Below are positions 3,452 through 21,809 of a DNA stretch of 40,000 nucleotides, piece after piece. This DNA is from Methanosarcina sp. (GTDB lineage Archaea; Halobacteriota; Methanosarcinia; Methanosarcinales; Methanosarcinaceae), in NCBI GenBank assembly GCA_036504475.1, contig DASXVB010000208.1, positions 527-40,526 of the forward strand, in the 5' to 3' direction. The position numbers and the translations under genes were made by a program. Position 1 is the first letter of the stretch. The number at the start of each line of letters is the position of its first letter. The notes under the pieces are model-generated. The model had not been told where the DNA came from, ran no database searches, and worked only from the letters and a program-made list of their open reading frames with translations.

Positions 3452-5062
3452 TCAGTCTCGTTTAGTTTCTAAATAATCATCAAAACCAAAGTAAAAATCC
3501 TGGAATGGTTTGATAGAATCTATAATATCTTCAAAATAATCCCGTCTGTCATGAGTGTAGATAAAATTCAACGTTTCTTGTTGAATATATTCACTTTCGA
3601 AAATATACCTTATATCAGAGTTCTTTGAGTGTTTAATTTGAAAAACAACCGTTTCAGTAACCCAAATCGGGTAATTTTTCATAATATAAGTACCGATAAT
3701 CCATAAGTATATCAAAGAGCGTTCGAACGTTTTGCCGTACTTAAAGGTATATATACATGTTTTGAAATCCTTATAATAAATCGGTAATACTTTTACACAT
3801 TCGGGTTCACGTTTATGTTCCTTACCAAAAGCGTTTATACTATAAGATCGACGAATTAAAAGTACCTGTTTTTTTCCTTCATTAAGCTCAAAGTTGTAAT
3901 TAATACCTGAAGCTCCGGCATTAAGAATTAAAGTTTTGCCATTATCCGCCATTTCCATATTATAAACTGTATATAAAATTTGAGTACTTTCTTTGAAAAA
4001 ATTATTTATTTTATCTAAGTCTTTTTTTTGGTAATTAAATCCTTTGATATCGTTCCAACAGAATAAGATTTCCCGATTTTCAGTTGCTTTTTCAGCGATT
4101 TCTAATAACATTTGAACTAAAGTAGGACTTTTCGAGTTACTATAATCTCCTTCGATCAGACTCAATTGATTCGGGAGAACCATACGTAAGTCACGTGATA
4201 TAGTTTTCAGAAAAGTAGTTCTGATCTTCTGAATATATACATACCCGATACTAAATAGAATTTCACATGAAAAATATATAATCGATTCATCAGAGTTCTT
4301 ATCGATACAACCAACACAAATTTCCCTAAACCCGTTTGTAAGATTCCAAGCAATTGGGTATTCAGTCATACTAATATAACGATTCATTACCGACCAAGGG
4401 ATTGGATAAAACCCGATATTGGTTTTTTTATCCATTGCTATAAGACCTAAACTTTCCAATTCAAGAATAGCTTGTTTAGTTGAATTTTCCAAATTGTTCT
4501 TAATACTAAGATTTCCAAGTCTCCTGATATAGGTTACAACGGACATCACTTCAGATGGCAGTGCTTCTTTCAATGCACTACGACCTAATTCACCTAATTC
4601 ATGGATTCTATCAGAAGTAATTACTTCATTTCTAGAATTAATTGCATCTCTAGCTTCATGTTCTAATTGCAAAACACCAGCTTGATATTTTATCAGTCTG
4701 TTGACTCTTAATAAGTATGGTATTATTCCTAAAACGCAAAAAACTGCTAAGAATACGTCTATTGCCAATAAGTCTACGTTACCAACGAAAGGCAGATTAA
4801 TTACATACATACTTATTTTTAATTGTATCAAAGGAAAAATTATACCACTGGTAAATAAAACCATGTACGCTTTCGTGTATTTGTCCATCAGTTTATCTAG
4901 TGACGTAAATCTGCCCATTGTTTGAGCACCAAAGATGGAAATTGTAAATACTAGAGCAAAAAGGGCTGCAAGTCCTTGTGAAACAGAACTAAGGAAATAC
5001 ATGACATTATCGGGATTTGCTGTATCAAAAGCTGAATTTGAATAAGTTAAAGAAATCACCAC
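3452..5062 (-). CDS. hypothetical membrane-anchored protein (536 aa)
   Basis: Long ORF. The first ~130 aa contain about four hydrophobic helices (e.g. GLAALFALVFTISIFGAQ, AYMVLFTSGIIFPLIQL, LLAIDVFLAVFCVLGIIPYLL), followed by a large soluble domain with no motif I recognise. Confidence 0.6.
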   Translation of the reverse strand: MVISLTYSNSAFDTANPDNVMYFLSSVSQGLAALFALVFTISIFGAQTMGRFTSLDKLMDKYTKAYMVLFTSGIIFPLIQLKISMYVINLPFVGNVDLLAIDVFLAVFCVLGIIPYLLRVNRLIKYQAGVLQLEHEARDAINSRNEVITSDRIHELGELGRSALKEALPSEVMSVVTYIRRLGNLSIKNNLENSTKQAILELESLGLIAMDKKTNIGFYPIPWSVMNRYISMTEYPIAWNLTNGFREICVGCIDKNSDESIIYFSCEILFSIGYVYIQKIRTTFLKTISRDLRMVLPNQLSLIEGDYSNSKSPTLVQMLLEIAEKATENREILFCWNDIKGFNYQKKDLDKINNFFKESTQILYTVYNMEMADNGKTLILNAGASGINYNFELNEGKKQVLLIRRSYSINAFGKEHKREPECVKVLPIYYKDFKTCIYTFKYGKTFERSLIYLWIIGTYIMKNYPIWVTETVVFQIKHSKNSDIRYIFESEYIQQETLNFIYTHDRRDYFEDIIDSIKPFQDFYFGFDDYLETKRD

Positions 5063-5470
5063 TAAAGCACAAATAAAACAAAGAACTACCTGACGAACGA
5101 CCTTATTATGTCTGGCGTTGTATATTTTCTACTTAAGATCCCACAAGAATCTTTCTATTTTCCTTATAGGATCTACTATCAAGAACTCAACAAATTTCGA
5201 TATAATTGATATAAAGGATTCTATAATTTCCAACATAAAATTTATCAAGGACCCGATGATTTCCCTAAAAATGCTTCGATCAATCGTATTTATAGCCTAT
5301 CCCAAAAGTTAGTAGCGTATATTGAAAAGTCACGATATATATAAATCAGAGCTTTTTCCAGCCCAACTGTCGCTTTCAATTTTATTCTTTTCATATTCGA
5401 TCTACAATATTTATTTTAATTAATGAATTGAACTTTAAAAATGTGCCGATTTTATTCAGTAGTATTCTTT

Positions 5471-5521
5471 GTCTGTGACCCTGCTTCTTTTTGCGGTGGG
5501 TATTTCGCGAGGGTCACAGAC
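5471..5521. repeat. 12-bp perfect inverted repeat gtctgtgaccct / agggtcacagac with a 27-nt spacer
   Basis: Read directly from the sequence. A third half-site, gtctgtgacc, lies at 372-381 with a related cgcg-containing flank. Confidence 0.6.
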
Positions 5522-5722
5522 GACCCAAAAACACACACTTCATAATCCAATATCCAAACTATCAAAATTAGTCAAACCAATTAAACAAATTTTCAGAAAA
5601 TTCTTCTGACAATCCACCGAAAATCCCGAAATCTAATTTTATAAGACTCATCGAGATATATCTCCTAGAAACCTCACCGCGAAAAATTTAAAATTATTGA
5701 GTAAATTATATATCCAAAAAAT

Positions 5723-5994
5723 AGATAACTCTCTTTTCACCCTACCCTCCTGTCTATATAACAAAGTATTTTTATTTCTTTTTATATATATTTAAAATTG
5801 TTATTTATAGTCCTATCGATACTGATTTTTTCATTTGTTTTTTTACTTTTTAAATTTTTTTAGACAATTGATAGACTTTTTTGTTTTGGGTAATTTCTAG
5901 TGCAATATCTAGTGCAATATCTAGAATATTTTATAATATTTTTTTCTGTTCTAATTTGGAGGTATAGGAAGGTAGGGTGAAAAGTGAATTATCT
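5723..5994. promoter_or_regulatory. origin-like region: 28-bp inverted repeats flanking ~215 bp of extremely AT-rich DNA with a tandem 12-mer
   Basis: agataactctcttttcaccctaccctcc (5723-5750) matches the reverse complement of ggaaggtagggtgaaaagtgaattatct (5967-5994) at 25 of 28 positions. Between them the 12-mer ctagtgcaatat occurs twice in tandem (5897-5920). The region lies ~120 bp downstream of the 552-aa P-loop-like gene. Confidence 0.4.
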
Positions 5995-6113
5995 ATCCTG
6001 GAATATACAATTGGACACATTGTTGTTAAAAAAAATGTTTAAACGCTATAACCTATGATAAGAATCAATAAAATTGTAATACTGTAAAAATTTGAAAAAA
6101 AATAGTTAATTTT

Positions 6114-7772
6114 TCAATGGAACATTGTGGCTTTTTTAAATTTCGCTATAGTACGGAACTCTTTAATATCCATATCATTCCCACTATACGGTATTTTCGT
6201 GAATTGTTCGTTATCATTCTGAATATATACGTACACCGCAGTTGGTTTAGTTTTACCTAAGATCCTTACTGTTTTTAAACTACCTGCTTCCTCCATTGAT
6301 TCTACAACTATATTAAGATCATGACTACCGCATTTTATTTTACGCATTAGTTTGGATCTTTCGATTTTCAAGTTTTTCCTCATCTCATCGTATACTTTAT
6401 CGCCAATCGAAGGCTGTACACCATTAGCTGATCCGATATCCGACATGATGGAACTAGCATAAGGAAGATAAACGTTGTCGAATAACCTTGCTGCATATAT
6501 GAACGATGCCAGCGTCACCGTCAAACGTTCGATTCTTAATTTGGCGACTTTCTCAAGATCCACAGCCATTATTTTTCTGTATATCTCTTCATCGCTTGGA
6601 ATTTCAGAAGGATTAACCTTCATATTTATTTCACTGACATCATCTAGAGAGTCCATTGTCGATAGTATGTAAGGCAGGTTTCCAATATCAATGAGTGCGA
6701 CTAGTTTCAGGGCAGTAGTTTGATATTTTCCAAAGAATGAATCTAGTTCGTGCCTCCTAGAACTAAAGAATAATTTCCTTTCTGCGCTCCATTTGTTGAG
6801 AAAACCGGCGTTTTCGTCGCCGTTTAAACTAAGCACACCTTCTTCAACGCCCAATTCAATGTCATTTTCTCCAAATAGAACGTTTATGATTTTTAATGAG
6901 TGTATCAGGGCTTTGGTTCTTAATGAGTCCTCACCTGATGTTATTCTAATTGGTCCTCTTGTCCTTTGGTATGTAGGGTTAACGATTATATGACGTGGTA
7001 GAAATCCCGTGTTGGCGTCTCCTGAAGTCATATGTTTACAGAAGTCTGATGTTGTAGTTGCCGCTATCATCGCGAAATACAGATTTTCAAGTTCGTATGT
7101 GTCATTAGACAGCGTATAATCAGGCATTTTCTCTTTGCACTCATACAACTCGTTAAATATATCTACAGTGCCTTTCATGTGCTGTTTTCCCAGTTGTGAA
7201 TATAAACTACCCGCCTCATCTTTCCAGTATACCCGCTGACCGTGTGGGATTTCACCGAATTTATCAAGCTCAGTGATTACGACTTCTCCTGTTTTCGTTC
7301 GTTCACCATGCCTGCAGGCGAGGATTTTTTGCAGTGTTTCAGGAGTACATTGGGAAGGTAAGAATGTTTCACCTACAGCCTCCCGTACGATCTTTTCGCC
7401 GATGCTCATAGGTCCTGATTTACGACTAGATGACAGTCCAAGTAATATCGCCCACACGTTAAGGTACTTCGTGGAACCGTTAAGGTTGAAATGCGCTCTC
7501 CGTCTAGTTACGGCTGATAACATGGCGAATCCTGTTTGCATGGAGTATTCAGGGTAAGCATCTGTTTGTTTCTTATTTGCCTCAACTAACAGTTTCACAA
7601 AGTTGTATCTAGGCATTCCATCGAAATTTACAGGTGCTATATCTGAGCGTTGGATTGGGACGTCCTCGAGTGATGGATACACTTCAATGTGTTCTGCGTC
7701 TTCGATATTGTCTTTATAGCCATGTGCGGTGATTACTTTAAGTTGATGAGGGTTGTCAATTTCGATAGCCAT
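6114..7772 (-). CDS. P-loop-like protein, putative replication/helicase-type protein of an integrated element (552 aa)
   Basis: Long ORF. The motif ILLGLSSSRKSGP resembles a degenerate Walker A (GxxxxxKS) of the kind seen in DUF3987-type plasmid/phage proteins. It lies in a minus-strand gene string with the small ORF, RHH and integrase genes. Function is inferred only. Confidence 0.55.
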   Translation of the reverse strand: MAIEIDNPHQLKVITAHGYKDNIEDAEHIEVYPSLEDVPIQRSDIAPVNFDGMPRYNFVKLLVEANKKQTDAYPEYSMQTGFAMLSAVTRRRAHFNLNGSTKYLNVWAILLGLSSSRKSGPMSIGEKIVREAVGETFLPSQCTPETLQKILACRHGERTKTGEVVITELDKFGEIPHGQRVYWKDEAGSLYSQLGKQHMKGTVDIFNELYECKEKMPDYTLSNDTYELENLYFAMIAATTTSDFCKHMTSGDANTGFLPRHIIVNPTYQRTRGPIRITSGEDSLRTKALIHSLKIINVLFGENDIELGVEEGVLSLNGDENAGFLNKWSAERKLFFSSRRHELDSFFGKYQTTALKLVALIDIGNLPYILSTMDSLDDVSEINMKVNPSEIPSDEEIYRKIMAVDLEKVAKLRIERLTVTLASFIYAARLFDNVYLPYASSIMSDIGSANGVQPSIGDKVYDEMRKNLKIERSKLMRKIKCGSHDLNIVVESMEEAGSLKTVRILGKTKPTAVYVYIQNDNEQFTKIPYSGNDMDIKEFRTIAKFKKATMFH

Positions 7773-7910
7773 TTACGCCACCTCCAAATGTGCGGCGAGT
7801 ACAGCTGAATAACTGCCAAACATAGGCTCATTTTTCAAAATCAGGCACGCTCTCGATAACAAACTTTCAAAAGCATTAAATACTCTGAAAGCATATTCTC
7901 TAGTGATCAT
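7773..7910 (-). CDS. small hypothetical protein (45 aa)
   Basis: MITREYAFRVFNAFESLLSRACLILKNEPMFGSYSAVLAAHLEVA. Its stop codon directly abuts the ATG of the 552-aa gene, suggesting translational coupling. It is below the ORF-track cutoff. Confidence 0.4.
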   Translation of the reverse strand: MITREYAFRVFNAFESLLSRACLILKNEPMFGSYSAVLAAHLEVA

Positions 7911-8031
7911 AAAAATAACTCCTAATTTCAATGGTTCGTACAGAGGAGTTCTAAGTACAGTGGGGTTTGAGCGGGAACTCAGATCCCATTAAAACATTCT
8001 GCACATTTTTCTTTCTGCTTTTCTAACCTTT

Positions 8032-8199
8032 TCATATACTTGGTACGCTGTGTGGTATTTCAACATCCGAAAAAACATCCGTTAGGATATTTGCTACAAA
8101 GGCTGATCTGCTTATTCTCTTCCTCGCCGCTTCAATCTTGTTGTACGTTTCAACGTCAACATATGCCATCACTGGTTTAAGTTCAACAGAATTTACCAT
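8032..8199 (-). CDS. ribbon-helix-helix (CopG/Arc-like) DNA-binding protein (55 aa)
   Basis: The translation is MVNSVELKPVMAYVDVETYNKIEAARKRISRSAFVANILTDVFSDVEIPHSVPSI. A beta-strand (PVMAYVD) followed by two helices, with the RSAFV motif, is the classic RHH pattern. It is below the ORF-track cutoff. Confidence 0.55.
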   Translation of the reverse strand: MVNSVELKPVMAYVDVETYNKIEAARKRISRSAFVANILTDVFSDVEIPHSVPSI

Positions 8200-8437
8200 A
8201 CACGTTCAACTCCGAATTATTTTATAATGTAAGTCAAGCCACAAATATCGCGGCATGTGGCAATATTATATAGGTGTTAAAACTATTTAAACCTGTCGAT
8301 AAATCGCATAAGCTACACTATTATAAAAGAGATTAAATTTTGGATATGCGACCAGCCTGTGTTTTTGGAATTTTGTTCTTTAATTGATAAATGTGTCAAT
8401 TGAATATAAATCTTCTGTATGGGATGGACTAAGAGCA

Positions 8438-9769
8438 CTAATAATCCGGACCCACGTCACTTCCATCGTCGGGTGGCAGTATAAGCCGGTTTGGATGGAT
8501 TTTTTGAACAAGTCTGGTGCCCAATTTGAATCCCTCTTGCGTGCCCTTTATTTCCCTATACAGTGAATCTATCTCGTTGCGTAGAGCGTTTAATTCCTCG
8601 CGTTCAATTGTTCCTTTCGCAACCTCGTTTTTCAAGTTGATAATTTCTTGCCTTTCGACGATATGTTTTGCCGTTTCAGCCCTCAATATATCGTTTTCTG
8701 ATTTAATAGCTTGATATTCGGGACTTTCGGATAAATCTAGCTCTTTTTGAATCGTTAAATAGGGAATGTACTTTTTATAGATCTCTTTGAGTTTTTCATG
8801 TGACGCTCTGAAGTAGCTCTCCTGTGTGCTTGGCAGAGTATGTCCCATGAAGTATTCAACATGAAAAAAGTCACAACCAGCATTTAATAAAGCACTGTTA
8901 AAATATTTTCGCATGTTATGCGAACGTATAAAGCCATAATCGCCTTTTTTTGTGTTTTTGCTTGCCTTTTCTGATACACTTTGGTACAACCGCATGAGAT
9001 TTTTTTGGGTGAACTTCCTCAGTTCATCGTCATGTTTTTCTAAAAACCCATCGGATACATTACGCACACAAAGCAAGTAATCACTGTCCGAATACACTTT
9101 TTGCTTTTCGAGTTGTTTTGTTCGTTTTGAATTGTCTGCCTTTACAGTCCGGTTTCTAAAGATGATGTATTCATTGACAGCGCGGCTTGCTTCAGGACTC
9201 AAAAATGTGATAAAATCCACATTTTCTTTAATTCTACGAAGTTTCAGCATTGTGATTTCCGTTGCTGGGTCATATCCGGCTAAAAAATCTTCAATTTTCA
9301 GATTTACAATTTCCTGGGCGCCTAATCCTGACGATGCGCCAATTAATATAATTGCTTTCTCAATGGGATCACAAACTTTTAAAACTGTTTGAATATCTTC
9401 CTTGCATGGTATGTCCTTATTCTCTTTAAGCCCGGTTGGTTTTTCAATTTTGAGTTTTGGAATATCGATGTAATTTGCTTGGTAAAATGATTTCACCGCT
9501 GTCAGATATGTTTTTATTGTATAGGGCGCAAGGTTCTGTGAAGTCAGATAATCTCTGAACTGATTGAGATGGATTGAAAGGTGACGGTTTCGCATTTTTA
9601 AATTGTCTTGTTCGAAGTCAGCTTCGTCGATAAGCTCATCCGGCGTTTTACCCAATTGTTCGCAATATATTTTTAGGACCGATGCGTATAACGTTTTAGT
9701 TGTACTCCTGGTAAATGAGTTTATCCAATTTACAAAAACTGGAAAGTCATTCATTCTAAAATTTTTCAT
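8438..9769 (-). CDS. int: tyrosine recombinase / phage-type integrase (443 aa) with a long coiled-coil C-terminal tail
   Basis: The C-terminal catalytic region IRSHNMRKYFNSALLNAGCDFFHVEYFMGHTLPSTQESYF carries the HxxR ... GH ... Y signature, and the N-terminus is SAM-like. The expected box I arginine is not obvious (SSGLGAQEIVNL). About 100 aa of heptad-like sequence follow the catalytic Tyr. Confidence 0.8.
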   Translation of the reverse strand: MKNFRMNDFPVFVNWINSFTRSTTKTLYASVLKIYCEQLGKTPDELIDEADFEQDNLKMRNRHLSIHLNQFRDYLTSQNLAPYTIKTYLTAVKSFYQANYIDIPKLKIEKPTGLKENKDIPCKEDIQTVLKVCDPIEKAIILIGASSGLGAQEIVNLKIEDFLAGYDPATEITMLKLRRIKENVDFITFLSPEASRAVNEYIIFRNRTVKADNSKRTKQLEKQKVYSDSDYLLCVRNVSDGFLEKHDDELRKFTQKNLMRLYQSVSEKASKNTKKGDYGFIRSHNMRKYFNSALLNAGCDFFHVEYFMGHTLPSTQESYFRASHEKLKEIYKKYIPYLTIQKELDLSESPEYQAIKSENDILRAETAKHIVERQEIINLKNEVAKGTIEREELNALRNEIDSLYREIKGTQEGFKLGTRLVQKIHPNRLILPPDDGSDVGPDY

Positions 9770-9948
9770 ATTAGCCTCTTAACTTTTGAGATATATACAT
9801 TTTTGCAATAAACTACCATAGGATAGATTCCTCATGCACTTGACAATAAAATGGTCGAGATATAATCATAAAGCTTCAATTTTGTTAAGTTCAAATTTAA
9901 TTTTCTGAAAATGTACACCTTTATATAACCCAAAATTTACCTTCTGCC

Positions 9949-10143
9949 ATGAATAATGGTACTATTAGAGCAAATATTAAAGAAGGAATGAATGTAGGGA
10001 TTGTCTTAAAAGAAAACCAGAAAACCGGAAAAATTACCCAGGGTGTTGTAAAAAGAATTTTAACAAATTCTTCAACTCATCCACGCGGAATAAAAGTTCA
10101 ATTAACGAATGGTCAGGTTGGAAGAGTTAAGGAAATCTACTAA
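9949..10143 (+). CDS. YwbE-family small protein (DUF2196-like, 64 aa)
   Basis: The KTGKITQGVVKRILTNSSTHPRGIKVQLTNGQVGRVKEI pattern matches the conserved YwbE family signature (TG.lT.G.V..ILT.S..HP.GIKV.L..GqvGRV.eI). Confidence 0.75.
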   Translation: MNNGTIRANIKEGMNVGIVLKENQKTGKITQGVVKRILTNSSTHPRGIKVQLTNGQVGRVKEIY

Positions 10144-10338
10144 AATTTGCAAGGAAATCTACTAAAATTTGCAGGGCAAGCTATTTTTAAAAGTCAATGA
10201 TAATATTAATATTCATTCTAAAACCCTGAAGACTCCATTCTACAATTCTGGACGTGCACTTAAATTATAAAAATAACCACTTAGTTGATTAGATCGAAAA
10301 AAAGCAAACGCTATAAGCAAAGCATACGGAAATAAAAC

Positions 10339-11148
10339 ATGCTAAAAGCTATTGCTTCAAATATATTCTTCATTGCTGCATCGAGGCTTAACACTGAGAT
10401 CGGGAAAGTATTTACGCGACACCAGGAGCAGAAGCAGGTAATTGTCACTGAAGAGATGCTGCAAAAACTGCCAGAGCCCGTTAGAAGATATCTTGAATAC
10501 ACTGGAATTGTTGGCAAGCCTATTGTTCAAAAAGTCCGTATCAAGCAAATTGGAAAAATCCGGAAAGATGCCACACAACCGTGGATGAACTTTGAAGCTA
10601 AACAATATTATTCTGTAAGCCCGCCGAGCTTCGTCTGGATTGCATATATGAAAATTTTTGGTTTGCCGTTGATACGAGTAAGAGATTATTATATGGAAGG
10701 CAGGGGCAATATTCTGGTGAAGGCGCTTTCACTATTCACAGTTGCGGATTCCGGAGGCGAGAAATTGGACCAAGGAGCAATGATGCGTTATCTTAATGAA
10801 ATGATGTGGTTTCCGTCGGCTTTTCTTGGAAAGAATATTTCTTTCGAATCTATTGATGCCAGCTTGGTGAGAGTAACATTGAGAGATATGGGTGAAAGTG
10901 TAACAGCAACTATGTATTTTGACGAAGAAGGAAAATTGACAAATTTCATAGCTTTACGCTATCGGGATATGGGCAAGAATAAATTTGAATTGGAAAGTTG
11001 GTCAACTCCGATTCGAGGATATGGTGAATTCGAAGGACTGAGGCTTCCCATAAAGGGCGTAGGCGTCTGGAATTTAAAAGAAGGCGATCTGGAGTATATT
11101 GATGTAACGATAACTGATTTAGAGTATAACCCGAGAGGGCCGTATTGA
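10339..11148 (+). CDS. conserved hypothetical protein (269 aa, DUF6544-like)
   Basis: Clean ORF. LPEPVRRYLEYTG ... PPSFVWIA ... VRDYYMEGRGNIL resembles a widespread uncharacterised family. The family name is recalled from memory, not searched. Confidence 0.55.
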   Translation: MLKAIASNIFFIAASRLNTEIGKVFTRHQEQKQVIVTEEMLQKLPEPVRRYLEYTGIVGKPIVQKVRIKQIGKIRKDATQPWMNFEAKQYYSVSPPSFVWIAYMKIFGLPLIRVRDYYMEGRGNILVKALSLFTVADSGGEKLDQGAMMRYLNEMMWFPSAFLGKNISFESIDASLVRVTLRDMGESVTATMYFDEEGKLTNFIALRYRDMGKNKFELESWSTPIRGYGEFEGLRLPIKGVGVWNLKEGDLEYIDVTITDLEYNPRGPY

Positions 11149-11244
11149 GAAAGCAAATGAGAATGCGAACAACATTTTCAGTTTTTAGACAACTTTTTTA
11201 ATTGTCTCCAAAACAATCCATCAGGTTACCTTTAAACTCTTGAT

Positions 11245-11892
11245 TTATAGCTTTCCTGCTCTCAGTTCTACAATATAAGGGTCATAGGCTGTAGTTGAGT
11301 CGCCTGAACAACGTGCAATATAATAATCTGCGATGATGCAAGCTTGCTGCTCGCGATTATAGTCCCGAAAATGCTTTTTTTCACCAGGTGTATATTCATA
11401 CCCTGAACTTACCTGCGCACGAAAGGCTTCAACCAGATATTGTGAACCTGCATTTTCCATCTGCGCAACATGAGTTAATTCATGTATAAGCCATTTCATA
11501 TCGGAATTGCCTGTAGCTGTGTTAAGTTTTCTATTGAAATTGATTGTATGGAAAGTCGTAACCCCCATACCTGAGCACTTTTTTAGCTTCGCTCCCAACC
11601 AGGCAATGAATGAGGCTTCGTCAATGTGTACCTTACGGTAATTGACTTTGTTTTCAAATATGCTTCGAGCCTCCTGTTCCTCTATTTCAGTAAGGCTCCG
11701 AGTATTAAGCTTAATTTGCCATAAACGATCCATAAGCTCAGGGAAGGCACAAATATCGAGAATTTTTGCGATAACATGACCAATCCTAAAAGCAAGGGTT
11801 AACAGCCTATATCTTATCAATTTGTGGAAATCCTCCTCACTCTGCCAGATCAGGGCAATCTCTCGCTTATAATTCTGACGGCTTTCAAACAA
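11245..11892 (-). CDS. zincin-like metallopeptidase-fold protein (DUF4157-like, 215 aa)
   Basis: HELTHVAQ (HExxH) is preceded by GMGVTTFHTINFNRKL, the typical DUF4157 arrangement. The start is a TTG and is uncertain. Confidence 0.6.
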   Translation of the reverse strand: MFESRQNYKREIALIWQSEEDFHKLIRYRLLTLAFRIGHVIAKILDICAFPELMDRLWQIKLNTRSLTEIEEQEARSIFENKVNYRKVHIDEASFIAWLGAKLKKCSGMGVTTFHTINFNRKLNTATGNSDMKWLIHELTHVAQMENAGSQYLVEAFRAQVSSGYEYTPGEKKHFRDYNREQQACIIADYYIARCSGDSTTAYDPYIVELRAGKL

Positions 11893-11988
11893 TCATCGTT
11901 TATAATTACTTCTCAGGCCCTATCTTCTTGATTTCTAATTGTACGCTATAAAGTAGATATATATCTATACTCAAAAAAAATCCTTGAG

Positions 11989-12372
11989 TTGAATTATATA
12001 AACCCAGCTAAATGTACTGAACTTGATTACATTAACTTTCTTATTGCTTCTTCGCGAGCCTTTAGCTGTACTGAAGCTTCTAAGTGCAGTTTTATAGACT
12101 CGACTAGTCCAGCTCATGACTCTTTTATTCGTCTTCTCATAAGACAGTCTCAAGTAAAGTCTCTAGTCACTCCTGAAACTGGAGTTCTTATTATTGATGA
12201 TACTGTTCTCAATAAACCTTATTCCAAACGTATGGATCTTGTTTATCGGCAATGGAGTGGCAAAAATCATCAGATTGTAAATGGCATCAATCTCGAAACC
12301 GTTGTCTGGACGTATAATGATGCTATAATACCTGTTGACTTTAGGACTTACGCACTTGAAGTACAAAATCAA
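11989..12372 (+). pseudogene. IS4/IS701-like DDE transposase, N-terminal fragment only
   Basis: INPAKCTELDYINFLIASSRAFSCTEASKC ... GVLIIDDTVLNKPYSKRMDLVYRQWSGKNHQIVNGINLETVVW...PVDFRTY is the conserved N-terminal third of this transposase type. The remainder of the ORF is AT-rich junk, so the gene is truncated at about 12340-12372. Confidence 0.7.
12341..12372. repeat. 32-bp box, copy 1 (ttaggacttacgcacttgaagtacaaaatcaa)
   Basis: Matches the reverse complement of 15765-15796 at 29 of 32 positions. Confidence 0.85.
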
Positions 12373-12502
12373 TTTTCTAATTTGATACTATATAAACCTC
12401 AAAAATTAATGCTGATATTATTTTACAATAGCATACAAAAAATTTAGCATTTTTATTTTTATCTGGCTATAAAATAAGGTTATAATATAAAGATGTGAAT
12501 AA

Positions 12503-12781
12503 AATACCAGTATTAAAAAGATATTGATTTGAGTATCTTACCAAACATCCAAACAATATAAAAAAAGATAGGATTTATATTGATTAAAAAGCCCATTAAC
12601 TTGAAAATTTTGCGTAACTTATTTTAATTACATTTCTTTTGATTGTGATTTTCACCAGCTTGGTATTATTTTTATAAAAATTTGTGTTAACAGCTAAAAA
12701 GTGTTATGAGATTAAATAAAAATATGTTTTTATTAGTTTAAATTTTATAAAACCCCTCAAAAATGGGGAACATATATACCC
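12503..12781 (+). repeat. solo, diverged copy of the casposon terminal repeat (remnant end of an older casposon)
   Basis: It is homologous along its length to 29860-30179 and to the reverse complement of 12796-13110. For example, aataccagtattaaaaagatattgatttgagtatcttacc aligns with the equivalent arm segments. Its terminus ...catttttga..ggggaacatatataccc abuts the left TSD copy. Confidence 0.7.
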
Positions 12782-12795
12782 GATTAATATTAATA
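12782..12795. repeat. target-site duplication, left copy (GATTAATATTAATA)
   Basis: An identical 14-mer in direct orientation lies at 30180-30193, immediately outside the two inverted termini. Confidence 0.8.
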
Positions 12796-13110
12796 GGGAT
12801 ATAAGGGTTGGCATTTTTGATAGTTTTATTTGAATGTTTTAATAATATTTTAAAATTTAGATAGTAAAACTGTGATATTTTGACAGTAGTATATAATTTT
12901 CTCTCAAATCGTAACGCTATATTATTTTTACACAAAATCTTCTGCTTAATAACTCCAAATTATAAAAAATCACAATCAAGAGCGATGTAACAAAAATAAG
13001 TTACACAAGTTTTCAAGGTAAAAGCTTTTTAATCGATCTAAATCCTATCTTTTTGTTAGGTTGTTTGGTAAGATACTCAAACCAGAATATTATTAATACT
13101 AGCAAACTTT
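12796..13110. repeat. casposon left terminal inverted repeat (~315 bp)
   Basis: It starts gggatataagggttggcatttttgatagttttatttgaatgttttaataatattttaaaa. The reverse complement of the right end reads gggatatataggttggcatttttgatagttttatttgaatgttttaataatattttaaaa. Similarity by eye drops to about 70 percent further inward. Confidence 0.8.
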
Positions 13111-13398
13111 TACAAATTATTTGAATTTAACCTGAAAAAATTTACAATTTCCTTGTTACATTCCTAAAAAATAATCAAGTTATAAAGTATAACTGACGTC
13201 TTAATTGCCATAACAAAAAGTAAATTTTTTACATTTTTTTAAATTTGCTGAAAAAAATAAGGCCCTTTTTTATTAATTTTATAGTTATGAAAGAGAATGT
13301 GCTTTTATACTTTTTAGAAATTTAAATCAATTTATTATAAATCATTTTTAGTTAAGAAATTGAAGTACATTTTTCATATCAATTACGCTTAAAATTAT

Positions 13399-14001
13399 TC
13401 AACGAATTTCACTTCTTCTTTCTACATCAATATCATCTAAAATTGTCTCAATTTCTTCCATCAAAATATCTCTTTCTGAACTCTCACTCATTTTATCGAT
13501 ATGTTCACCAACTCTTTCATAGTGCATGTTAGGTTTTTGTTTTTCGTACGCAGACCATATTTTGTTTTTAACATCATCAAGGCTAAAGACTTGGTTTTCT
13601 GATAAACTCAAATATATCATCATTACTAAGTATCTGCAATAAGGATGATCTAATATCACATAAAGATAAGCAAGGCGATCTATACTTTCTGAATTAATTG
13701 GTAAATTATTTCTTCTGTCAATATAATCATAAAATAATTCAAAGAACCAGATATTTGCTTCAATTCCTATACTTTGATAATCTTCTGGATCTAAATGAAG
13801 GTAGGAATTAGTTAGCCTATATATGTAATTTGTATGTTCTGACTTAGAACATCTATAATAACCATTATCTGTATCATTTGTGCCAAATAAAACCTGATCG
13901 AGTATATTAAGTTGACAATCTATCTCTTCCAAGTTTATTCCTGAACTACTTAAATGTTTTATTCTTTCAACTATAAGATAAATCAAAGGATCGTCAATCA
14001 T
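13399..14001 (-). CDS. hypothetical protein (200 aa), directly abutting the upstream HEAT-repeat gene
   Basis: Its ATG directly abuts the stop codon of the 550-aa gene (14001/14002). No motif recognised. Confidence 0.55.
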   Translation of the reverse strand: MIDDPLIYLIVERIKHLSSSGINLEEIDCQLNILDQVLFGTNDTDNGYYRCSKSEHTNYIYRLTNSYLHLDPEDYQSIGIEANIWFFELFYDYIDRRNNLPINSESIDRLAYLYVILDHPYCRYLVMMIYLSLSENQVFSLDDVKNKIWSAYEKQKPNMHYERVGEHIDKMSESSERDILMEEIETILDDIDVERRSEIR

Positions 14002-15654
14002 TTAAGGCCTCACGATTATGATATTATCATTATGAGAATGAAAAGCTATTAAGCTAGTGATTAAAGGTAGGTTTGGTCTCCCCTTACTGCTTGGAGGTGC
14101 ATGAAAATGATAAGTATAACTAACAAAATTTTTACCAATTAAATCGCTAAATAACCGACCTGAACCGATTTTTTCGAAATTTTCCCCAACTATAACTAGT
14201 GGTTTACATTCTTCTATTTTTTTGGAATATGGTGGTCTTCCAGATACCCAATCGGAAACAAGAAACCAGAAGTCTTGTTTTTTGTCACAATACTTCATAT
14301 TGTACTGATCTGGATGAAAAACGACTATGTCAATTTTAAATACTTTTCGAAACTTGTTTCTTAGGAGTCTATTAGCCCAATCTGCATGAACGGTAGTAGT
14401 TAAATAGCTGTAAAGGCCCTTTGTGTAAGCAATCCACCTCTGGTATAATTCGATTCCTTCAGGGCTACAGGCATCATATACATTTTCAATATCTTCAGTA
14501 TCTATCCATCCCATTACTCCTATACTACCATACATCATTGACGAGTAAGGATTTTTTATTGAAGTCAAATAAACCCCATCTCCCCAGGTAAAACCAGGAG
14601 ATTTAGATATAAAGAGTTTTTTTCCATTATTTAAAAAAGATTGGAAGTAAGCAGGAGAAAAATATTTAAGTCCATAAACTTTATCCTGATTTCCATTTAG
14701 TCCAATAAAATTCTCTCTGAACCAATTAGAAGATTTTTTTATATGATCAGAAATTTCTTTTTCTAATACATGATTTTGGATAATATTTTTTAGCTTTTTA
14801 TCCAGAAAAGGCAGGCCTTTTCTTATTGTTCCTATTGTGAATGGTGCTGTTTCTTCAGTATCCATCAAAAGTTCTATTGCATGTTCACAATATTTTCTAT
14901 AGAAATTAAGCTCATCTTTTTTTGTCTCTAAATCCAGATTTCCTAGACTCTGGACTTCTTTTAATGCTTCAGCAAGATTTTCAACAGCTTCAAAAAGCAA
15001 TTCCTTACTCTTTGAACCCTCAATTGCAGATTTAGCTTCTTCCAAATATTTGTTCACTTCTTCTCTAGCTTCCTGTCTTTTGAAAAGTATTGTGTAGAAA
15101 GAACGATAGAAAGGAAGACAAAATTTTGAAGGATTATACAAATAATGTGACTCCTGTGCTGCTTTTTCAAAAAAAGAAATAGCTTTTTCCAATTCTTTTT
15201 TATAATCTTCTTCTATTTTTGCTTGGGAAGCTTTGGATATAGAAACTTTTCCAAGAGCGTGATTTGAATAAACTCTCACATAACGGTCTTCATCAGTGGT
15301 AAGTCTGCGTAAGTCGTTCCATGCCTGTTGTTTATCTGGCACTTGAGAAAACACAGAACCAAGAGCGTCAGCAGCCATAGACCTAACATCACGGTCTTCA
15401 TCAGTGGTCAGTCTATGTAAATCGTCCCATGCCTGTTGTTTATCGGGCACATCAGAAAATGCAGTACCAAGTAAAGAAGCAGCCCAAGATCTCACAAAAC
15501 TGTTTTCATCATAAGTAAGTCCAATTAATTCATTCCATGCCTGTTGTTTATCCAGCAATTGTAAAAAATTGTCTGTTAATTTCTCTAATGCATGTCTACG
15601 CTCTTTTGGATTTTCGCTTAGACATTTATTGTGAATTTTCTCTTGGTCGACCAA
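14002..15654 (-). CDS. HEAT-repeat protein with an uncharacterised C-terminal domain (550 aa)
   Basis: The N-terminal ~130 aa contain three to four PBS-lyase/HEAT-type repeats (DKQQAWNDL.RLTTDEDR.VR..AA.ALG..FS.VP), followed by a helical linker. The C-terminal ~250 aa contain SPGFTWGDGVYLTSIKNPYSSMMYG. Confidence 0.7.
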   Translation of the reverse strand: MVDQEKIHNKCLSENPKERRHALEKLTDNFLQLLDKQQAWNELIGLTYDENSFVRSWAASLLGTAFSDVPDKQQAWDDLHRLTTDEDRDVRSMAADALGSVFSQVPDKQQAWNDLRRLTTDEDRYVRVYSNHALGKVSISKASQAKIEEDYKKELEKAISFFEKAAQESHYLYNPSKFCLPFYRSFYTILFKRQEAREEVNKYLEEAKSAIEGSKSKELLFEAVENLAEALKEVQSLGNLDLETKKDELNFYRKYCEHAIELLMDTEETAPFTIGTIRKGLPFLDKKLKNIIQNHVLEKEISDHIKKSSNWFRENFIGLNGNQDKVYGLKYFSPAYFQSFLNNGKKLFISKSPGFTWGDGVYLTSIKNPYSSMMYGSIGVMGWIDTEDIENVYDACSPEGIELYQRWIAYTKGLYSYLTTTVHADWANRLLRNKFRKVFKIDIVVFHPDQYNMKYCDKKQDFWFLVSDWVSGRPPYSKKIEECKPLVIVGENFEKIGSGRLFSDLIGKNFVSYTYHFHAPPSSKGRPNLPLITSLIAFHSHNDNIIIVRP

Positions 15655-15764
15655 CTACCTACACCATAAGTTCCGATAAAACTAAAAGCTTAAAACAGTT
15701 TCTTTTTGACTTTAGAAATTCATAATAAGATTTATTTAAAATGGATCCAAAATGTATATTGTTC

Positions 15765-15796
15765 TTGATTTTGTACTTCGAGTGCCTAAATCCTAA
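15765..15796. repeat. 32-bp box, copy 2 (ttgattttgtacttcgagtgcctaaatcctaa)
   Basis: Inverted copy of 12341-12372 (29 of 32 match). It lies 78 bp downstream of the Cas1 stop codon. Confidence 0.85.
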
Positions 15797-15873: not shown

Positions 15874-16872
15874 TTAATATAGAAAATTGATATCTTCCCT
15901 TCTTCCCTCTACATATTCCGCTAATTCAAACCCTTTCCTTTCTATTACTTTTCTTCTCGGAATAAGTTTTCCTTCATATTCTATTCTTTCACCCATTCGG
16001 GTTTCATAGGCCTTACTTAGCTTATCTGTCCCTCCCTCTCTTAACCTGAGAGAATAATTATTCATTCTCAAAAAATCGCTTTTAGGAACTCTAAAACCTT
16101 TTGAGAGTAATTTATAGACTGTTACATATATTTCTCCTCTAAAAATCTCCTGTAGATCGTATGCTAAACTTCGTTTTTCATTTCTCATTTCATGTAAAAA
16201 GCCGATACATGGATCAAGCCCTACTGTATTAATTACTCTCAAACATTCGGCTTCAAGTAAGGCATAACCATAATTTAGCATTGTATTAGTATAATCAGAG
16301 GCCCCCCTTCCAGATCTTTCTACAAAACCCCATTTTTCAGGAATAGCTTTCATAAATTCTTTCCAGTAGATTTTTGCTGATTCTCCTTCAATCCCCATTA
16401 ATTCAGGTATATCTTTTGCTTTATCGACTGCTTTAAGATATGGGGAAATAACATAAGATTCAATATCAGGATAAGGCAAGGATTCTAAAACCTTAATAGA
16501 ATTAGCTAGTTTAGCATTAATTATACTCTGAGCAATAGAAAATCTTCTCTTTTCATCATTATAGGTTTTATACTGTGCAATTTTCCGCTTTCCATTTCCC
16601 TCTTTTTCCTGATTAACAGAAGATAATAAACTACCATCCCAATTCAAAATATTAAGCTGAATGTTCTGTAAACTTATCCACTTAAAAGCTTCAAGGGAAA
16701 CATAGCCGGTTTGACCATAAATCAAGATAGATGTTATCTTTTTCTGATTTGGTTGTAAACAATAAATCTCTTCCTCTCTATCTTTAGTTAAAGGAATTCC
16801 GTTTTTAATTATAAGTTTCCCGTCATTAACTTTTAAAGAAATTCCATAACCATCCAAGAGTAAAAGACCCAT
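15874..16872 (-). CDS. cas1: Cas1 homolog, casposase (332 aa)
   Basis: NTMLNYGYALLEAECLRVINTVGLDPCIGFLHEMRNEKRSLAYDLQEIFR is the hallmark Cas1 core with the catalytic His and acidic residues. EGESAKIYW supplies the upstream Glu, and the N-terminus is the typical beta-rich domain. The gene sits next to PolB rather than cas2. Confidence 0.9.
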   Translation of the reverse strand: MGLLLLDGYGISLKVNDGKLIIKNGIPLTKDREEEIYCLQPNQKKITSILIYGQTGYVSLEAFKWISLQNIQLNILNWDGSLLSSVNQEKEGNGKRKIAQYKTYNDEKRRFSIAQSIINAKLANSIKVLESLPYPDIESYVISPYLKAVDKAKDIPELMGIEGESAKIYWKEFMKAIPEKWGFVERSGRGASDYTNTMLNYGYALLEAECLRVINTVGLDPCIGFLHEMRNEKRSLAYDLQEIFRGEIYVTVYKLLSKGFRVPKSDFLRMNNYSLRLREGGTDKLSKAYETRMGERIEYEGKLIPRRKVIERKGFELAEYVEGRREDINFLY

Positions 16873-17006: not shown

Positions 17007-20000
17007 TTAATTAACGCTTAATATGTCTTTACAATAATTAACTAATATTGCTGGAACAATACAATTTAGGTTTAGGCTTTCATTTTTTCGGACCTTACTT
17101 TTTACATCCATTAAAGATTGCTCTGGAATTCCTAATTTTCCCACTTCTTTTACAGATAACCCTAGAATAATCTCTTTCTCTTTTTCTGTTGGCAAATGAT
17201 AATTGCCTCTCAGATGTTTTCTAGCTCGTTTTAAAGTCTTCAGAGATTCTTCTACCCATTTTATGGTGGGTTTTTCTAATCCGGTTTTATACGTTTCTAT
17301 TTCCTTTTTTATTTTTGATAAATCAGAGTTTCTAACGTCTCCTCTTCTTCTTGCTTTTTCCCAGGCAATCTCTACTTTTTCGGTTAAATTTTCAAGCTTC
17401 TCAAAAACCTGAACGTCATCTTCCTCTGCCTCAGGTAACTCTTCAAACTGCTTTACTTGATCAATTTCCTTTCCTATCGCTTTGATGCCTGTTATAAAGA
17501 TTTCTCTGCGTTTAAGCAGTCCTCTTTTTCCCGTGAATTTTGCTTCAGGATGGTTATAATAATCAAAAAAGGTTTTATCCATTCTATTAAAGTATTCAGT
17601 TCCTTCTTTTATTTCCCCTGTTTTTGCATCAATAAATGGATTATTAACCATGTCCTGAAAATTATCACTCATTGGAGCAATTGGCATTATGTCCTTATTA
17701 GGACTATTCCCTCTAAGGAAGAAATTATAAGGTTTAATTCGCTCTTCATATGGCTTTCCGCTATTGATTTGATTAAACCAGTAAAGGACTGTTGGTGTTC
17801 TGATCCCGATTTTTGATATTTCAAACTTATTTCCGTATTTTGAAATTATATCGGTTTCATCTAGGATTCCTTCGTGATAAAGGATAATATCTCTCCACAT
17901 TATTGGATGCCATTTTTTATTTTCTTCTGTTTCTATCTGAAAAATATTAGATATATGCCCCAATCCATGAAGCTTCCCCTCCATTCTTGTAATATCAGGG
18001 ACTCCGTTTTCGTCACGTGCAAAGACCACATATCTTTTTGAAGAGATTCCTAAAAAGAATTGTTGAGGAGTCCTTAATCCGGTTTCTTCATCTTTTACTC
18101 TTCCTTTGAATTTATCCTCAATTTTAAGAAGTTCAGAAACATTCTCATAAGGGTTTAATGGATTAAAGAAATTGGAAACCTCTTCCGCTATTTCTGGTGG
18201 CACGAAAATACTATCGGTATCCATGTAATAATGAGAATACCCTAGTTCCTTAACTTTAGCCTCTGCTATTGCTAACATAAGTCTTGAAGCGGCTGTTATT
18301 GTGGTTCCAATTAGTGGATTAAAAAATTTACCTTCTTTTTCCGATCTGCCAAAAGAAGTAAACTTTTCTTCTCCTCTACAGACTATTAATTCTTTTTCAG
18401 TTTCCTGAGTGTTTAATTCAACGAATATGCCATATCCAAGCGCGTTAGATAAAATTTTTAATCCAAGTTGTTTTCCATCCTTCTCTGAATACTCGGAAGA
18501 ATCTTCATCCAGTAATTTCATTTCCTTTTTAATTTTCTGTCTTTCCTCTACAAAGAATTTAATCAAATTATCTTTTCTTGGGTTTATTTTATATCCTAGT
18601 ATTTTAGTTGACTTTAATCCATTTTGTTTTGTTCCAGGTTCATACTTGTAAGCCATTAGTATTTCAGGGGTTTTTCCAGTAAGGAGCTTACTTGCTACTA
18701 CGTCACAAAGAGTGAACCAGATGCATTTATCTGAACTTAGATTCTCAAGTCCAACAGTTTTTTCTGTATTCTCATCGTAACCTGTTCTAAGTGGTAAAAT
18801 ATCATTATCCGGTTTCACTTTGACTATAGCAGGCATTTTTTTCCATATACTGGGATCTTGCATTTTTTCCAGGGTTATCGAGTCGACAAATTCCTTAATT
18901 TCTTCTGTTGCTTCTTTTTCAACATAGCAGTTTGAAATCATGTAGTCCCATAGTCCTATTAAAACGATAACCGAAGGATACATAGATGTAAAGTCTAAAA
19001 CTTCAGATGGTTTTATCTCATGCCTGAGTTTACATTCCACTCGGCCTGCATAGAAAGCTTCCATTATCCGACCTAAGCTATCAGAAGGATATTCAGGATT
19101 TAAGTCTAAAAATGGCTTTATTCCCATTTGTTTAAACAAGGCTTTGCCTATTGATGCACCACTATAAATTCTGTTAAAAGGAAGATCTTTTAAACCAATA
19201 TTCTTAATCGCTTCTTCTACTTTCACATATACGTCATATGTTGCTTTTACGTCACCCTGTAAATAAGTCAAGTACTCTTTGGTAATCTCTCCATGTTTTT
19301 CTACCTCTAATTTTTGATGTTCTGTTTTTAACATCTTACAGGCTTCTTTTAATGTAAAGTGTTGAGTACCAGATCCAAAAAGAACACTAACTAAATGCGA
19401 ACAATCAAAGAAGTATCCCTTCTTCTTTTCGTCAGTATTGTTAACCACTATTTTTCTTTTTCTTCCTTTTTTATCTATCATTTCTTCTTCACATTTTGCT
19501 TGCGAAAAACTGATAGATTCAGCTAAGCCCATTCTTCTTATTTTGATATTAGGTACTGTCGGAAATTCTGGAAAAGATAGGAGAATATCTCCCTTTCTTG
19601 GGTCACCTTTAACAGTATTCTCGGCTTTGCCAGCAATTCTGCTTAAATCAAAGGGTAAATTATAGCCAATGCAAGGCGTTTCTTTTCCATAGCATTCGGG
19701 TAAAAAGATATTCGCAATAAATTCAGATGTTGAATATAACGGAATATTTTTTTCTTCAGCATATTCCTTAAGTATCTTGATCTCCTTATAAGATGGTGGA
19801 ATTTGCATAAGGGAATTTTGCAGATTGGTAAAACGAGTATTTATTACCGCGTGTTTCTCAGGCATCGGAACATAAAAGAACCCGTTTTCCTGCAATTCCC
19901 CATTTTCCAAAATTTCAAAATACCCGACTTCCAAATTTTGATAACAGTCTGTCGTTGTTTCAGTATCAAGTACTAGAAGCCTAGGATATGATGTTTTTAA

Positions 20001-20093
20001 AGAGTCTTGATAAAAACCACAAAATTTTGAGCCTTTCTTTCTCCTTTCTTCGGTCTCGATATATCCTCTACAAAATGCTTCTTTGTATTCCAT
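17007..20093 (-). CDS. polB: family B DNA polymerase (1028 aa) with a C-terminal HTH-containing extension
   Basis: All motifs are present: Exo I LVLDTETT, Exo II YNLPFDL, Exo III YLQGDVKATYDVY, motif A DFTSMYPSV, motif B KILSNALGYGIF, motif C YYMDTDSIF, and KxY as SSKRYVV. Confidence 0.92.
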   Translation of the reverse strand: MEYKEAFCRGYIETEERRKKGSKFCGFYQDSLKTSYPRLLVLDTETTTDCYQNLEVGYFEILENGELQENGFFYVPMPEKHAVINTRFTNLQNSLMQIPPSYKEIKILKEYAEEKNIPLYSTSEFIANIFLPECYGKETPCIGYNLPFDLSRIAGKAENTVKGDPRKGDILLSFPEFPTVPNIKIRRMGLAESISFSQAKCEEEMIDKKGRKRKIVVNNTDEKKKGYFFDCSHLVSVLFGSGTQHFTLKEACKMLKTEHQKLEVEKHGEITKEYLTYLQGDVKATYDVYVKVEEAIKNIGLKDLPFNRIYSGASIGKALFKQMGIKPFLDLNPEYPSDSLGRIMEAFYAGRVECKLRHEIKPSEVLDFTSMYPSVIVLIGLWDYMISNCYVEKEATEEIKEFVDSITLEKMQDPSIWKKMPAIVKVKPDNDILPLRTGYDENTEKTVGLENLSSDKCIWFTLCDVVASKLLTGKTPEILMAYKYEPGTKQNGLKSTKILGYKINPRKDNLIKFFVEERQKIKKEMKLLDEDSSEYSEKDGKQLGLKILSNALGYGIFVELNTQETEKELIVCRGEEKFTSFGRSEKEGKFFNPLIGTTITAASRLMLAIAEAKVKELGYSHYYMDTDSIFVPPEIAEEVSNFFNPLNPYENVSELLKIEDKFKGRVKDEETGLRTPQQFFLGISSKRYVVFARDENGVPDITRMEGKLHGLGHISNIFQIETEENKKWHPIMWRDIILYHEGILDETDIISKYGNKFEISKIGIRTPTVLYWFNQINSGKPYEERIKPYNFFLRGNSPNKDIMPIAPMSDNFQDMVNNPFIDAKTGEIKEGTEYFNRMDKTFFDYYNHPEAKFTGKRGLLKRREIFITGIKAIGKEIDQVKQFEELPEAEEDDVQVFEKLENLTEKVEIAWEKARRRGDVRNSDLSKIKKEIETYKTGLEKPTIKWVEESLKTLKRARKHLRGNYHLPTEKEKEIILGLSVKEVGKLGIPEQSLMDVKSKVRKNESLNLNCIVPAILVNYCKDILSVN

Positions 20094-20111: not shown

Positions 20112-20429
20112 TCAATTTTCCAGTAATTCATTACTTACTACTTCTAACGTTTCACTCATTACTTTAAGCAAGGCTCCTGCACTTATTAAAGCAAATTTTT
20201 CTAAATCGCTTTTAGAAGCGTGTTTAGATCGTCTTTCTGGGGGGAGTTTATTTTGATAGTATGTCATTTTAAAATGGCAAAACGGGCAAACCAAAATTAT
20301 ACTAGGCGAATAATTTCTTCCTAAATAGTGATGTTTTTGTAAAGGAAGGTCACTTCTTCCGCAAGTCTGACATTTTTTATCTGGCATAATATGATTGAAA
20401 CACACGGTTTGGCTCCTTTGATCGTTCAA
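20112..20429 (-). CDS. HNH endonuclease (probable start at the internal ATG, 20387)
   Basis: CQTCGRSDLPLQKHHYLGRNYSPSIILVCPFCHFKM has the CxxC ... HH ... CxxCH His-Me finger pattern. It ends 19 nt upstream of the polB start. Confidence 0.8.
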   Translation of the reverse strand: MNDQRSQTVCFNHIMPDKKCQTCGRSDLPLQKHHYLGRNYSPSIILVCPFCHFKMTYYQNKLPPERRSKHASKSDLEKFALISAGALLKVMSETLEVVSNELLEN

Positions 20430-21060: not shown

Positions 21061-21248
21061 ATTAAATCACTCTCCTTCTTCTTTTTCTTCTGCTCTTAAT
21101 TTCTTCAAAATTTGACCATAGCCTACGCTAACCGAATAATTACAATCCTAGAAAGAATTAAGTCAAATCACGTTTTTTAAATCTCAATGTTCAAAAACAA
21201 TAATGCAATGAACTTCTGTTAATAAGTGTAATTTTATAAATTTCTCTT

Positions 21249-21770: not shown

Positions 21771-21809
21771 TTAACGGTTTTTTTGGAGGGGGGCTAAAAA
21801 AACCGTTAA
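21771..21809. repeat. perfect 14-bp stem hairpin ttaacggttttttt / aaaaaaaccgttaa with a G-rich 11-nt loop
   Basis: Read directly from the sequence. It lies in the non-coding stretch upstream of the zinc-ribbon gene. Confidence 0.6.

Follow-up and report, generated by a model that had tools for sequence, protein, structure and literature searches.

A Methanosarcina casposon likely inserted beside the remnant of an older casposon at a reused 14-bp target

Introduction

Tandem casposons that share a single target-site duplication (TSD), solo terminal inverted repeats (TIRs), insertions in both orientations, IS elements and 14-bp TSDs have all been described in Methanosarcina (Krupovic et al. 2016, Genome Biol Evol, PMC4779613). 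The same study reported the family-4 type MetMaz1FA1A3-C1, located at IR2, with an 827-aa TPR protein, 225-bp TIRs and a 35-nt TSD. Tandems also arise in vivo by re-integration of MetMaz-C1 into its original target (PMC10359463), and a model of stacked insertions, in which one flank acts like a CRISPR leader, has been put forward for the A. boonei casposase (Beguin et al. 2016, NAR, PMC5137440). A C-terminal HTH is a feature of family-2 casposases (PMC9939771). Casposons have been proposed as ancestors of the CRISPR adaptation module, a scenario whose natural intermediates would be orphan TIRs and insertions stacked with a regenerated target between them.

Here we describe a 40,000-nt stretch of Methanosarcina sp. 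DNA (contig DASXVB010000208.1, positions 527 to 40,526; hereafter the window), in which an intact casposon stands next to the terminus of another one. A first-pass annotation, made from the sequence alone, had read the locus as an older end, a shared target copy, an intact casposon and a second target copy, and had suggested that it would point to strong reuse of one target site. For comparison, contigs encoding close homologues of the 154-aa gene that borders the casposon were fetched, and the DNA upstream of this gene was read. Loci and contigs used in the comparison are designated by L numbers.

Results

An intact casposon occupies an intergenic target

The segment 12796-30179 (17,384 bp) is a complete casposon, whose bounds are given by TIRs and TSDs, whose core genes are full length, and in which every long ORF lies on the minus strand. 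It has an internal Cas1-family integrase, a PolB gene beside cas1, and TIRs with a TSD around a target that is single in the empty site. The 14-mer GATTAATATTAATA has exactly two exact matches in the window, the left TSD at 12782-12795 and the right TSD at 30180-30193; comparably, the target 14-mer is found in two copies around intact elements and in a single copy, as GATTAGTATTAATA, in the empty site of L015-17. The left TIR, at the Cas1-proximal end (12796-13120), starts at 12796 with GGGATATAAGGGTTGGCATTTTTGATAG, and the right TIR (29850-30179) has the terminus ..AAAACTATCAAAAATGCCAACCTATATATCCC, its last base being 30179 and its closing sequence ..CTATCAAAAATGCCAACCTATATATCCC. Both TIRs belong to what we call class A (see below) and, like the TSDs, are given on the plus strand. 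They form an inverted repeat with arms that are 84% complementary over 147 nt ungapped and 75.6% over 344 nt gapped, about 320-340 nt being alignable.

The casposase, a Cas1 homologue of 332 aa (15874-16872, minus strand; Pfam Cas_Cas1 PF01867, E = 1.3e-61), found its best solved structure in 6OPM (E = 3.7e-72), which we take to be the M. mazei casposase, the structure label itself reading only Cas1. The alignment spans residues 18-351 of 431 and stops there, the window Cas1 being without the C-terminal HTH of family 2. The nearest casposases of about 400 aa are only 40-46% identical to it. Adjoining cas1 is the gene for a family B DNA polymerase of 1028 aa (17007-20093, minus strand; DNA_pol_B_2 PF03175, E = 2.2e-9; DNA_pol_B PF00136, E = 5.9e-7), which is collinear with the 1024-aa PolB of L019, an intact casposon of M. 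flavescens.

Three further products are encoded on the minus strand. A 550-aa protein, cargo or accessory (14002-15654; Pfam HEAT_2, E = 4.5e-11), carries HEAT repeats near its N-terminus and no HTH detected by Pfam. The 922-aa cargo protein at 23043-25811 is a STAND-type NTPase with TPR repeats (Pfam TPR_12, E = 7e-82; AAA_16 and NACHT matches weak) and is not orthologous to the 827-aa TPR protein of L055, a casposon of M. mazei. A small Cys/His-rich protein of 105 aa (20112-20429) shows CxxC..HH..CxxC motifs, recognized by eye in the translation; it gave no match in Pfam or NCBIfam, and on these motifs it is possibly the HNH or Zn-finger protein of casposons. Also inside the element, about 2 kb (21061-23042) contain no ORF of at least 80 aa and gave no Rfam match; this segment includes an imperfect duplication of about 470 nt (22135-22349 versus 22609-22819) and a local reversal of GC skew. 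Contigs 100% identical to the window were found in two samples, L024 covering 12669 onward (14,204 nt) and L025 covering 11,225 nt of the interior.

Beyond the right TSD lies the native right flank (30194-30752, plus strand), which consists of a 94-nt upstream region and the 154-aa gene (30288-30752) and follows the TSD in all compared loci. A tRNA was sought at the integration site; ARAGORN reported only tRNA-Gln at 38686-38758, and Rfam gave nothing in 11000-32000. A tRNA target, usual for family 2, was thus ruled out, and the integration target is intergenic.

A terminal repeat of a second class abuts the left target copy

The left TSD is shared by the intact casposon and by a third terminal repeat. 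This putative relic of an older casposon (12392-12781, plus strand) comprises subterminal DNA (12392-12502) and a TIR (12503-12781) with the terminus ..CCCCTCAAAAATGGGGAACATATATACCC; oriented like the right TIR, it ends with ..GGGGAACATATATACCC at 12781 and abuts the TSD. The junction at 12772-12807 accordingly reads ..ATATATACCC, GATTAATATTAATA, GGGATATAAGGG.., that is, two inverted termini with exactly one TSD copy between them. Against the reverse-complemented left TIR, the third copy gave a local score of 148 (86% of 135 aligned positions), and against the right TIR a score of 90 (76% of 204 positions); the maximum among 200 shuffles was 38. BLAST E-values against the TIRs were 2e-34 and 8e-23. 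Chance similarity is ruled out by the shuffled controls, and both the coordinates and the alignment scores bear out the first-pass description of a third, TIR-like copy ending at the left TSD. A lack of significant similarity, named there as an outcome that would overturn the reading, did not emerge from the three-way alignment.

The likeness to the window element's own TIRs starts at about 12502-12509, while the likeness to the end of the intact related casposon L019 reaches inward to about 12392. Positions 12392-12804 are 70.7% identical over 427 nt to the right end of the L019 casposon, and 12468-12794 are 75.2% identical over 330 nt to its left end. The orphan repeat thereby matches both ends of a full-length M. 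flavescens casposon, as a solo TIR should.

On its left, the relic is bounded by a truncated IS701-family transposase gene (11989-12366, plus strand) that retains only the N-terminal ~126 codons. In the ORF 11989-12447, only the N-terminal 126 residues match IS701-family transposases (NCBIfam NF049921, residues 11-126 of a 318-position profile, E = 3.7e-29; Pfam DDE_5, E = 9e-8), in agreement with the IS4/IS701-like fragment noted earlier at this place, and the join between relic and IS fragment falls between ~12367 and ~12391. Left of 12392, the window holds the IS701 fragment and chromosomal genes, with no Cas1 and no PolB. A search of the upstream part of the window for a further TIR copy, or for a plus-strand TSD-like site followed by a terminus, found none, and a search of the window for the left end or left TSD of the older element gave nothing convincing: TSD-like matches with 1-2 mismatches (at 10204, 23012 and others) have no adjoining terminus, and weak TIR matches at 6019-6112 and 32535-32694 are AT-rich and marginal.

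The end of the IS701 fragment also shows a 32-nt inverted match (12341-12372 versus 15765-15796, 29/32) to the spacer between the Cas1 and HEAT genes inside the casposon. It extends more weakly, as 12341-12463 versus the reverse complement of 15675-15796 and as 12362-12456 versus 29472-29561, and L002 retains this sequence too, which may derive from an IS or represent an intergenic motif repeated in casposons.

Comparison of the termini separates two classes of TIR. Class A, with the terminus ..AAAACTATCAAAAATGCCAACCyTATATCCC, is found in both window TIRs, L002 and L008/9. Class B, with the terminus ..AAACCCCTCAAAAAyGrrGAryATaTATACCC, is found in the third copy, L003, L005-7, L010-14 and both ends of L019 and L055; the M. 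mazei relics have class-B termini as well. Common to both classes are the blocks GTAAC..TTAC, GATTGTGATTTT, GTGTTACG, AAAAGTATG and the terminal CCC. In the 95 terminal columns of the alignment, the third copy shares 74-87% identity with class B, against 24-27% with the class-A window TIRs. In the three-way alignment, its outer ~60 nt seem to carry three deletions; these apparent deletions are common to all class-B termini, and we rejected the idea that the third copy is a decayed copy of the window element's TIR. The earlier description of a more diverged copy of the terminal repeat consequently holds insofar as this is a real TIR, but fails as to its class. By the sequence of its terminus, the third copy is assigned to a different casposon lineage than the window element.

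Intact casposons with class-B termini were found in M. flavescens L019 (GCA_900198705.1; 10.2 kb, 4326-14545), with GATTAGTATTAATA on both sides, and in M. mazei L055 (GCA_000979845.1; 8716-18418), with GATTAATATTAATA on both sides. A further class-B casposon, L048, sits at another chromosomal site, where its 14-nt TSD is CATTAAACCTAACC (75-142 and 9812-9864); this TSD has positions 2-6 (ATTAA) and 10-12 (TAA) in common with the main target. A 14-nt duplication at an unrelated site indicates that the enzyme makes 14-bp duplications with some flexibility of target.

The target is found in seven states among Methanosarcina loci

The 154-aa gene is conserved in Methanosarcina (169 homologues, many of them named Methanosarcina). 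The target lies about 95 nt upstream of it and is normally downstream of the DUF2551 and AF_0843 genes. Among the loci fetched, the site occurs in seven states. It is empty in L015-17, where ..CTTTCTATAAAAAGGG is followed by GATTAGTATTAATA and GATTTATAACC; read as ..CTATAAAAAGGG, GATTAGTATTAATA, GATTTATAACC, this site has the left flank of L019. It is occupied by an intact class-B casposon in M. flavescens L018-23, again with the left flank of the empty site, and by a decayed class-B casposon in L003, where both TSDs (GATCAATATTAATA) are kept and the left one is fused to Cas1 at about codon 222. Only a class-B relic is present in L005-7, L010, L011-14 (with both ends in ~545 bp) and M. mazei L038-46, and only a class-A element in L002 (decayed), L008/9 and L037 (A-like terminus). 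In the two remaining states, a class-B relic is accompanied by an intact class-B casposon (M. mazei L055) or by an intact class-A casposon (the window). The layout of relic, TSD, casposon and TSD is present in M. mazei L055 independently of the window.

The survey of site occupancy in relatives, suggested in the first pass, thus supports strong reuse: one target has been repeatedly and independently occupied, and the empty, relic-only, B-intact and A-only loci all agree with its reading of older end, shared target copy, casposon and second copy. As regards orientation, the Cas1-proximal end points away from the 154-aa gene in the window casposon and in L037, and the opposite way in L002, L003, L019 and L055. 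In M. mazei strains without a casposon (L038, L039, L041-44 and L046), a single GATTAATATTAATA is adjoined by a diverged class-B relic TIR, located in the ~300 nt upstream of the TSD.

The decayed copies differ in detail. In L003 (87-130), the fusion of left TSD and Cas1 possibly arose through GTAT microhomology with the start of the TIR. L002 has a different deletion than L003, its TSD, TIR and Cas1 codons 1-130 being gone. The remnant of L011 (9333-9903; also in L012-14), whose right TSD is intact and whose left TSD is degenerate (AATTAATACTAATA), is mini-casposon-like and not a solo TIR. In L040, an IS (DDE_Tnp_1) stands in place of most of the relic. A response-regulator spacer ~5 kb downstream of the 154-aa gene harbours a second orphan class-B terminus (15223-15293 in L015-17; ~19912-19932 in L018 and L020).

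The left flank of the window site is rearranged. The 215-aa gene (11245-11892) and tRNA-Gln (38686-38758) are adjacent and upstream of the target in L002, L011 and L015; in the window, they lie on opposite sides of the casposon locus, the 215-aa gene being inverted. The DUF2551 and AF_0843 genes were not detected in the window, where a comparison of ORF size, position and strand gave no counterpart beyond tRNA-Gln at the right end. No contig was returned when the protein of the left-flank gene 11245-11892 was looked up by exact match. A second integrated element (~1780-10300), to the left of the casposon locus, has a XerA-like tyrosine integrase gene (8438-9769) and, besides unknown ORFs, a gene for a DUF3987 protein (6114-7772); in the closest relative, L005, only ~0.9 kb lie between the homologue of window 442-1646 and the relic TIR. 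On the other side, window 30900-35500 is ORF-poor and AT-rich (21-26% GC in places) and, compared with L005, has been scrambled by several small inversions. The whole region is bracketed by a direct repeat of 66 nt (89%; 1656-1721 and 35262-35327), the copies of which are 33.6 kb apart.

The 35-nt TSD of family 4 is probably a composite

The element L055 lies in the spacer between DUF2551 and the 154-aa gene. It encodes a 332-aa Cas1 that is 86% identical to that of the window and an 827-aa TPR protein, and its TIRs are alignable over ~313 nt at 78%. The size of the TPR protein is that of the family-4 type, a match that would place the clade in family 4 and the site at IR2; by these sequence features we infer that L055 corresponds to the published MetMaz1FA1A3-C1.

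The longest exact direct repeat flanking the L055 casposon is 35 nt, GAAGAGTATCTATACCCGATTAATATTAATAGGGT (within 8641-8775 and 18358-18492). It is made up of 17 nt found both in the relic terminus and in the right TIR terminus, the 14-nt TSD, and 4 nt (GGGT) found in the left terminus and in the native flank. Within 1-2 bases of terminal ambiguity, a duplication of 14 bp is what the window, L003, L048, the M. flavescens element and the empty site all show. The published 35-nt TSD is thus probably a composite, in which the true 14-nt TSD is lengthened by 17 nt of relic terminus and by a chance match of 4 nt; it would owe its length to the same relic-plus-casposon layout as in the window. If the site is IR2, as its position and the likeness of L055 suggest, an old relic TIR is present at the "empty" IR2 sites of M. 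mazei.

Discussion

We observed two TIR classes on either side of one copy of a 14-bp target that is empty in some Methanosarcina and has been occupied repeatedly and independently in others. The order of relic B end, TSD, casposon A, TSD and gene very probably reflects a class-A insertion beside the end of an older class-B casposon at a reused target. In our model, an earlier class-B casposon would have integrated into the 14-bp target just upstream of the 154-aa gene, leaving a regenerated target copy at each end. Later, a second casposon, with class-A termini but of the same Cas1 clade, would have entered the gene-proximal target copy and duplicated the target again, a casposase presumably catalysing both events. 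The segment 12392-12781 would be the surviving right-hand end of the earlier casposon, its interior and left end having gone; since the stub abuts the truncated IS701 copy on the left, the loss on that side was likely caused by a deletion or rearrangement associated with the IS.

The order B then A is likely in the window, given that A is intact, with 100% identical copies in two samples, whereas all that is left of B is a ~390-bp stub, cut by a likewise truncated IS, and by analogy with M. mazei. There, the relic of L055 is essentially the relic of the casposon-free strains, which indicates that the older element had been reduced to a stub before the new casposon was inserted. The first pass placed the loss of most of the older element after the second integration, which may hold for the window but does not fit M. 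mazei: the relic occurs there in strains with and without the casposon, and decay came first. The window relic is 68-75% identical to the relics of its closest relatives (L005-7 and L010), while the adjoining non-coding flank is ~95% identical. The window relic and these relics are thus no orthologues; turnover at the site has occurred more than once, and L005-7 and L010 do not represent the literal pre-insertion state of the window genome.

The geometry of the junction taken alone is symmetric, and the reverse order would be that A entered the empty site first and B then entered the left (DUF2551-side) copy, to be later truncated to its right end. The A. boonei model puts recognition on one fixed side of the TSD (PMC5137440), which may be either side in this clade, and since precise excision is documented (PMC10359463), relatives with a relic only do not strictly exclude this order. 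It is nevertheless unlikely: A is intact and identical in two samples, B underwent at least two further events (the IS insertion, then the truncation of IS and casposon), and in M. mazei the orthologous relics are clearly older than the casposon, which sits gene-side as in the window. A further alternative is an assembly chimera, a relic-only strain and a casposon-A strain having been joined through shared sequence. The join shares only CCC and the 14-mer, 17 nt in all. This is below usual assembly k-mers. The window is a metagenome assembly whose junction is known from assembled contigs and not from reads, and casposon ends are known to break assemblies (PMC4779613). The matching JGI contig (3300035523 Ga0376481_001766), which may not be an independent assembly, begins inside the relic, at window 12669, and is 100% identical through the junction; it has 113 nt of relic, the TSD and A contiguous. 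With an identical architecture in the isolate-type M. mazei assembly L055, we consider a chimera highly improbable.

The palindrome 12503-13110 might instead be an independent MITE-like unit of two inverted termini around a 14-bp spacer, its halves being inverted repeats with inner blocks that are 85-94% identical; two-ended mini relics do exist at the target site, in L011-14 (~545 bp). Yet for a transposon the arrangement is inside-out, with termini that point at one another across the TSD, the two halves differ in TIR class and are found separately at the same site in other genomes, and the right half pairs with 29850-30179 across the full casposon. The first-pass annotation had asked whether this ~600-bp palindrome stands free at many loci, and it was not found to do so. 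An exact CCC-TSD-GGG scan of metagenome contigs returned no other head-to-head junction, three matches being relic plus native flank and two unrelated; this negative is weak alone, because the scan missed the window's own JGI contig and the collection is thus incomplete. Taking these points together, we regard a free-standing MITE as extremely improbable, and we retain the reading of a class-A insertion beside a class-B remnant.

Under the stacking order favoured here, the target had a TIR terminus on its left at the second integration, in the window as in M. mazei, in place of the native ..AAAAAGGG. Integration can therefore dispense with the native left flank, and recognition must lie in the 14-mer and/or the gene-side flank, which has a moderately conserved consensus around GrTTTATAACCTTTA. 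Stacking beside one leader-like flank fits, by analogy, the A. boonei model, as seen in just two cases of double occupancy that both have no older left TSD. More tentatively, and with considerable doubt on our part, we hypothesize that the DUF2551/154-aa spacer, probably IR2, may be a polar landing pad in which the relic terminus and the 14-mer act like a leader-repeat pair, so that casposons of either class would enter only the gene-proximal copy and stack chronologically like a proto-CRISPR array. If this were true, the family-4 casposase would duplicate 14 bp and not 35 bp, and the relic might help to recruit the casposase.

If L055 is the published element, its clade, probably family 4, uses a 14-bp staggered cut like that of family 2, and the odd 35-nt outlier is removed. 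A native left flank that is unnecessary for integration would also narrow the search for the target-recognition motif. The overall gain is incremental and not surprising: the locus is a clean heterotypic example, with two TIR classes, one target and one Cas1 clade.

Compared with the tandems and solo TIRs of PMC4779613, the window shows the same two units around a single shared TSD, the same relic TIRs at a preferred target and the same 14-bp TSD, along with insertion in either orientation and IS elements in or beside casposons. It differs in that the published tandems consist of two related, largely complete elements, while one of the window's units is a ~390-bp stub and the two are of different TIR classes. 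The solo TIRs in that work were at IR1, and IR2 was described as intact and empty in casposon-free strains. The A. boonei (PMC5137440) and MetMaz-C1 (PMC10359463) enzymes resemble the window in preferring a site and regenerating the target, with TSD-separated stacking possible; unlike it, they are family-2 enzymes with an HTH and target a tRNA 3' end or IR1. Among described elements, the family-4 type shares long TIRs (~320 bp in the window, 225 bp as published), but its published TSD is 35 nt, against 14 bp in the window, L019, L003 and the second site of L048. From the family-4-like L055, the window element is set apart by its class-A termini, other cargo, HEAT-repeat ORF and opposite orientation. 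The window site is thus a new example of a known phenomenon, in which the paired TIRs are heterotypic.
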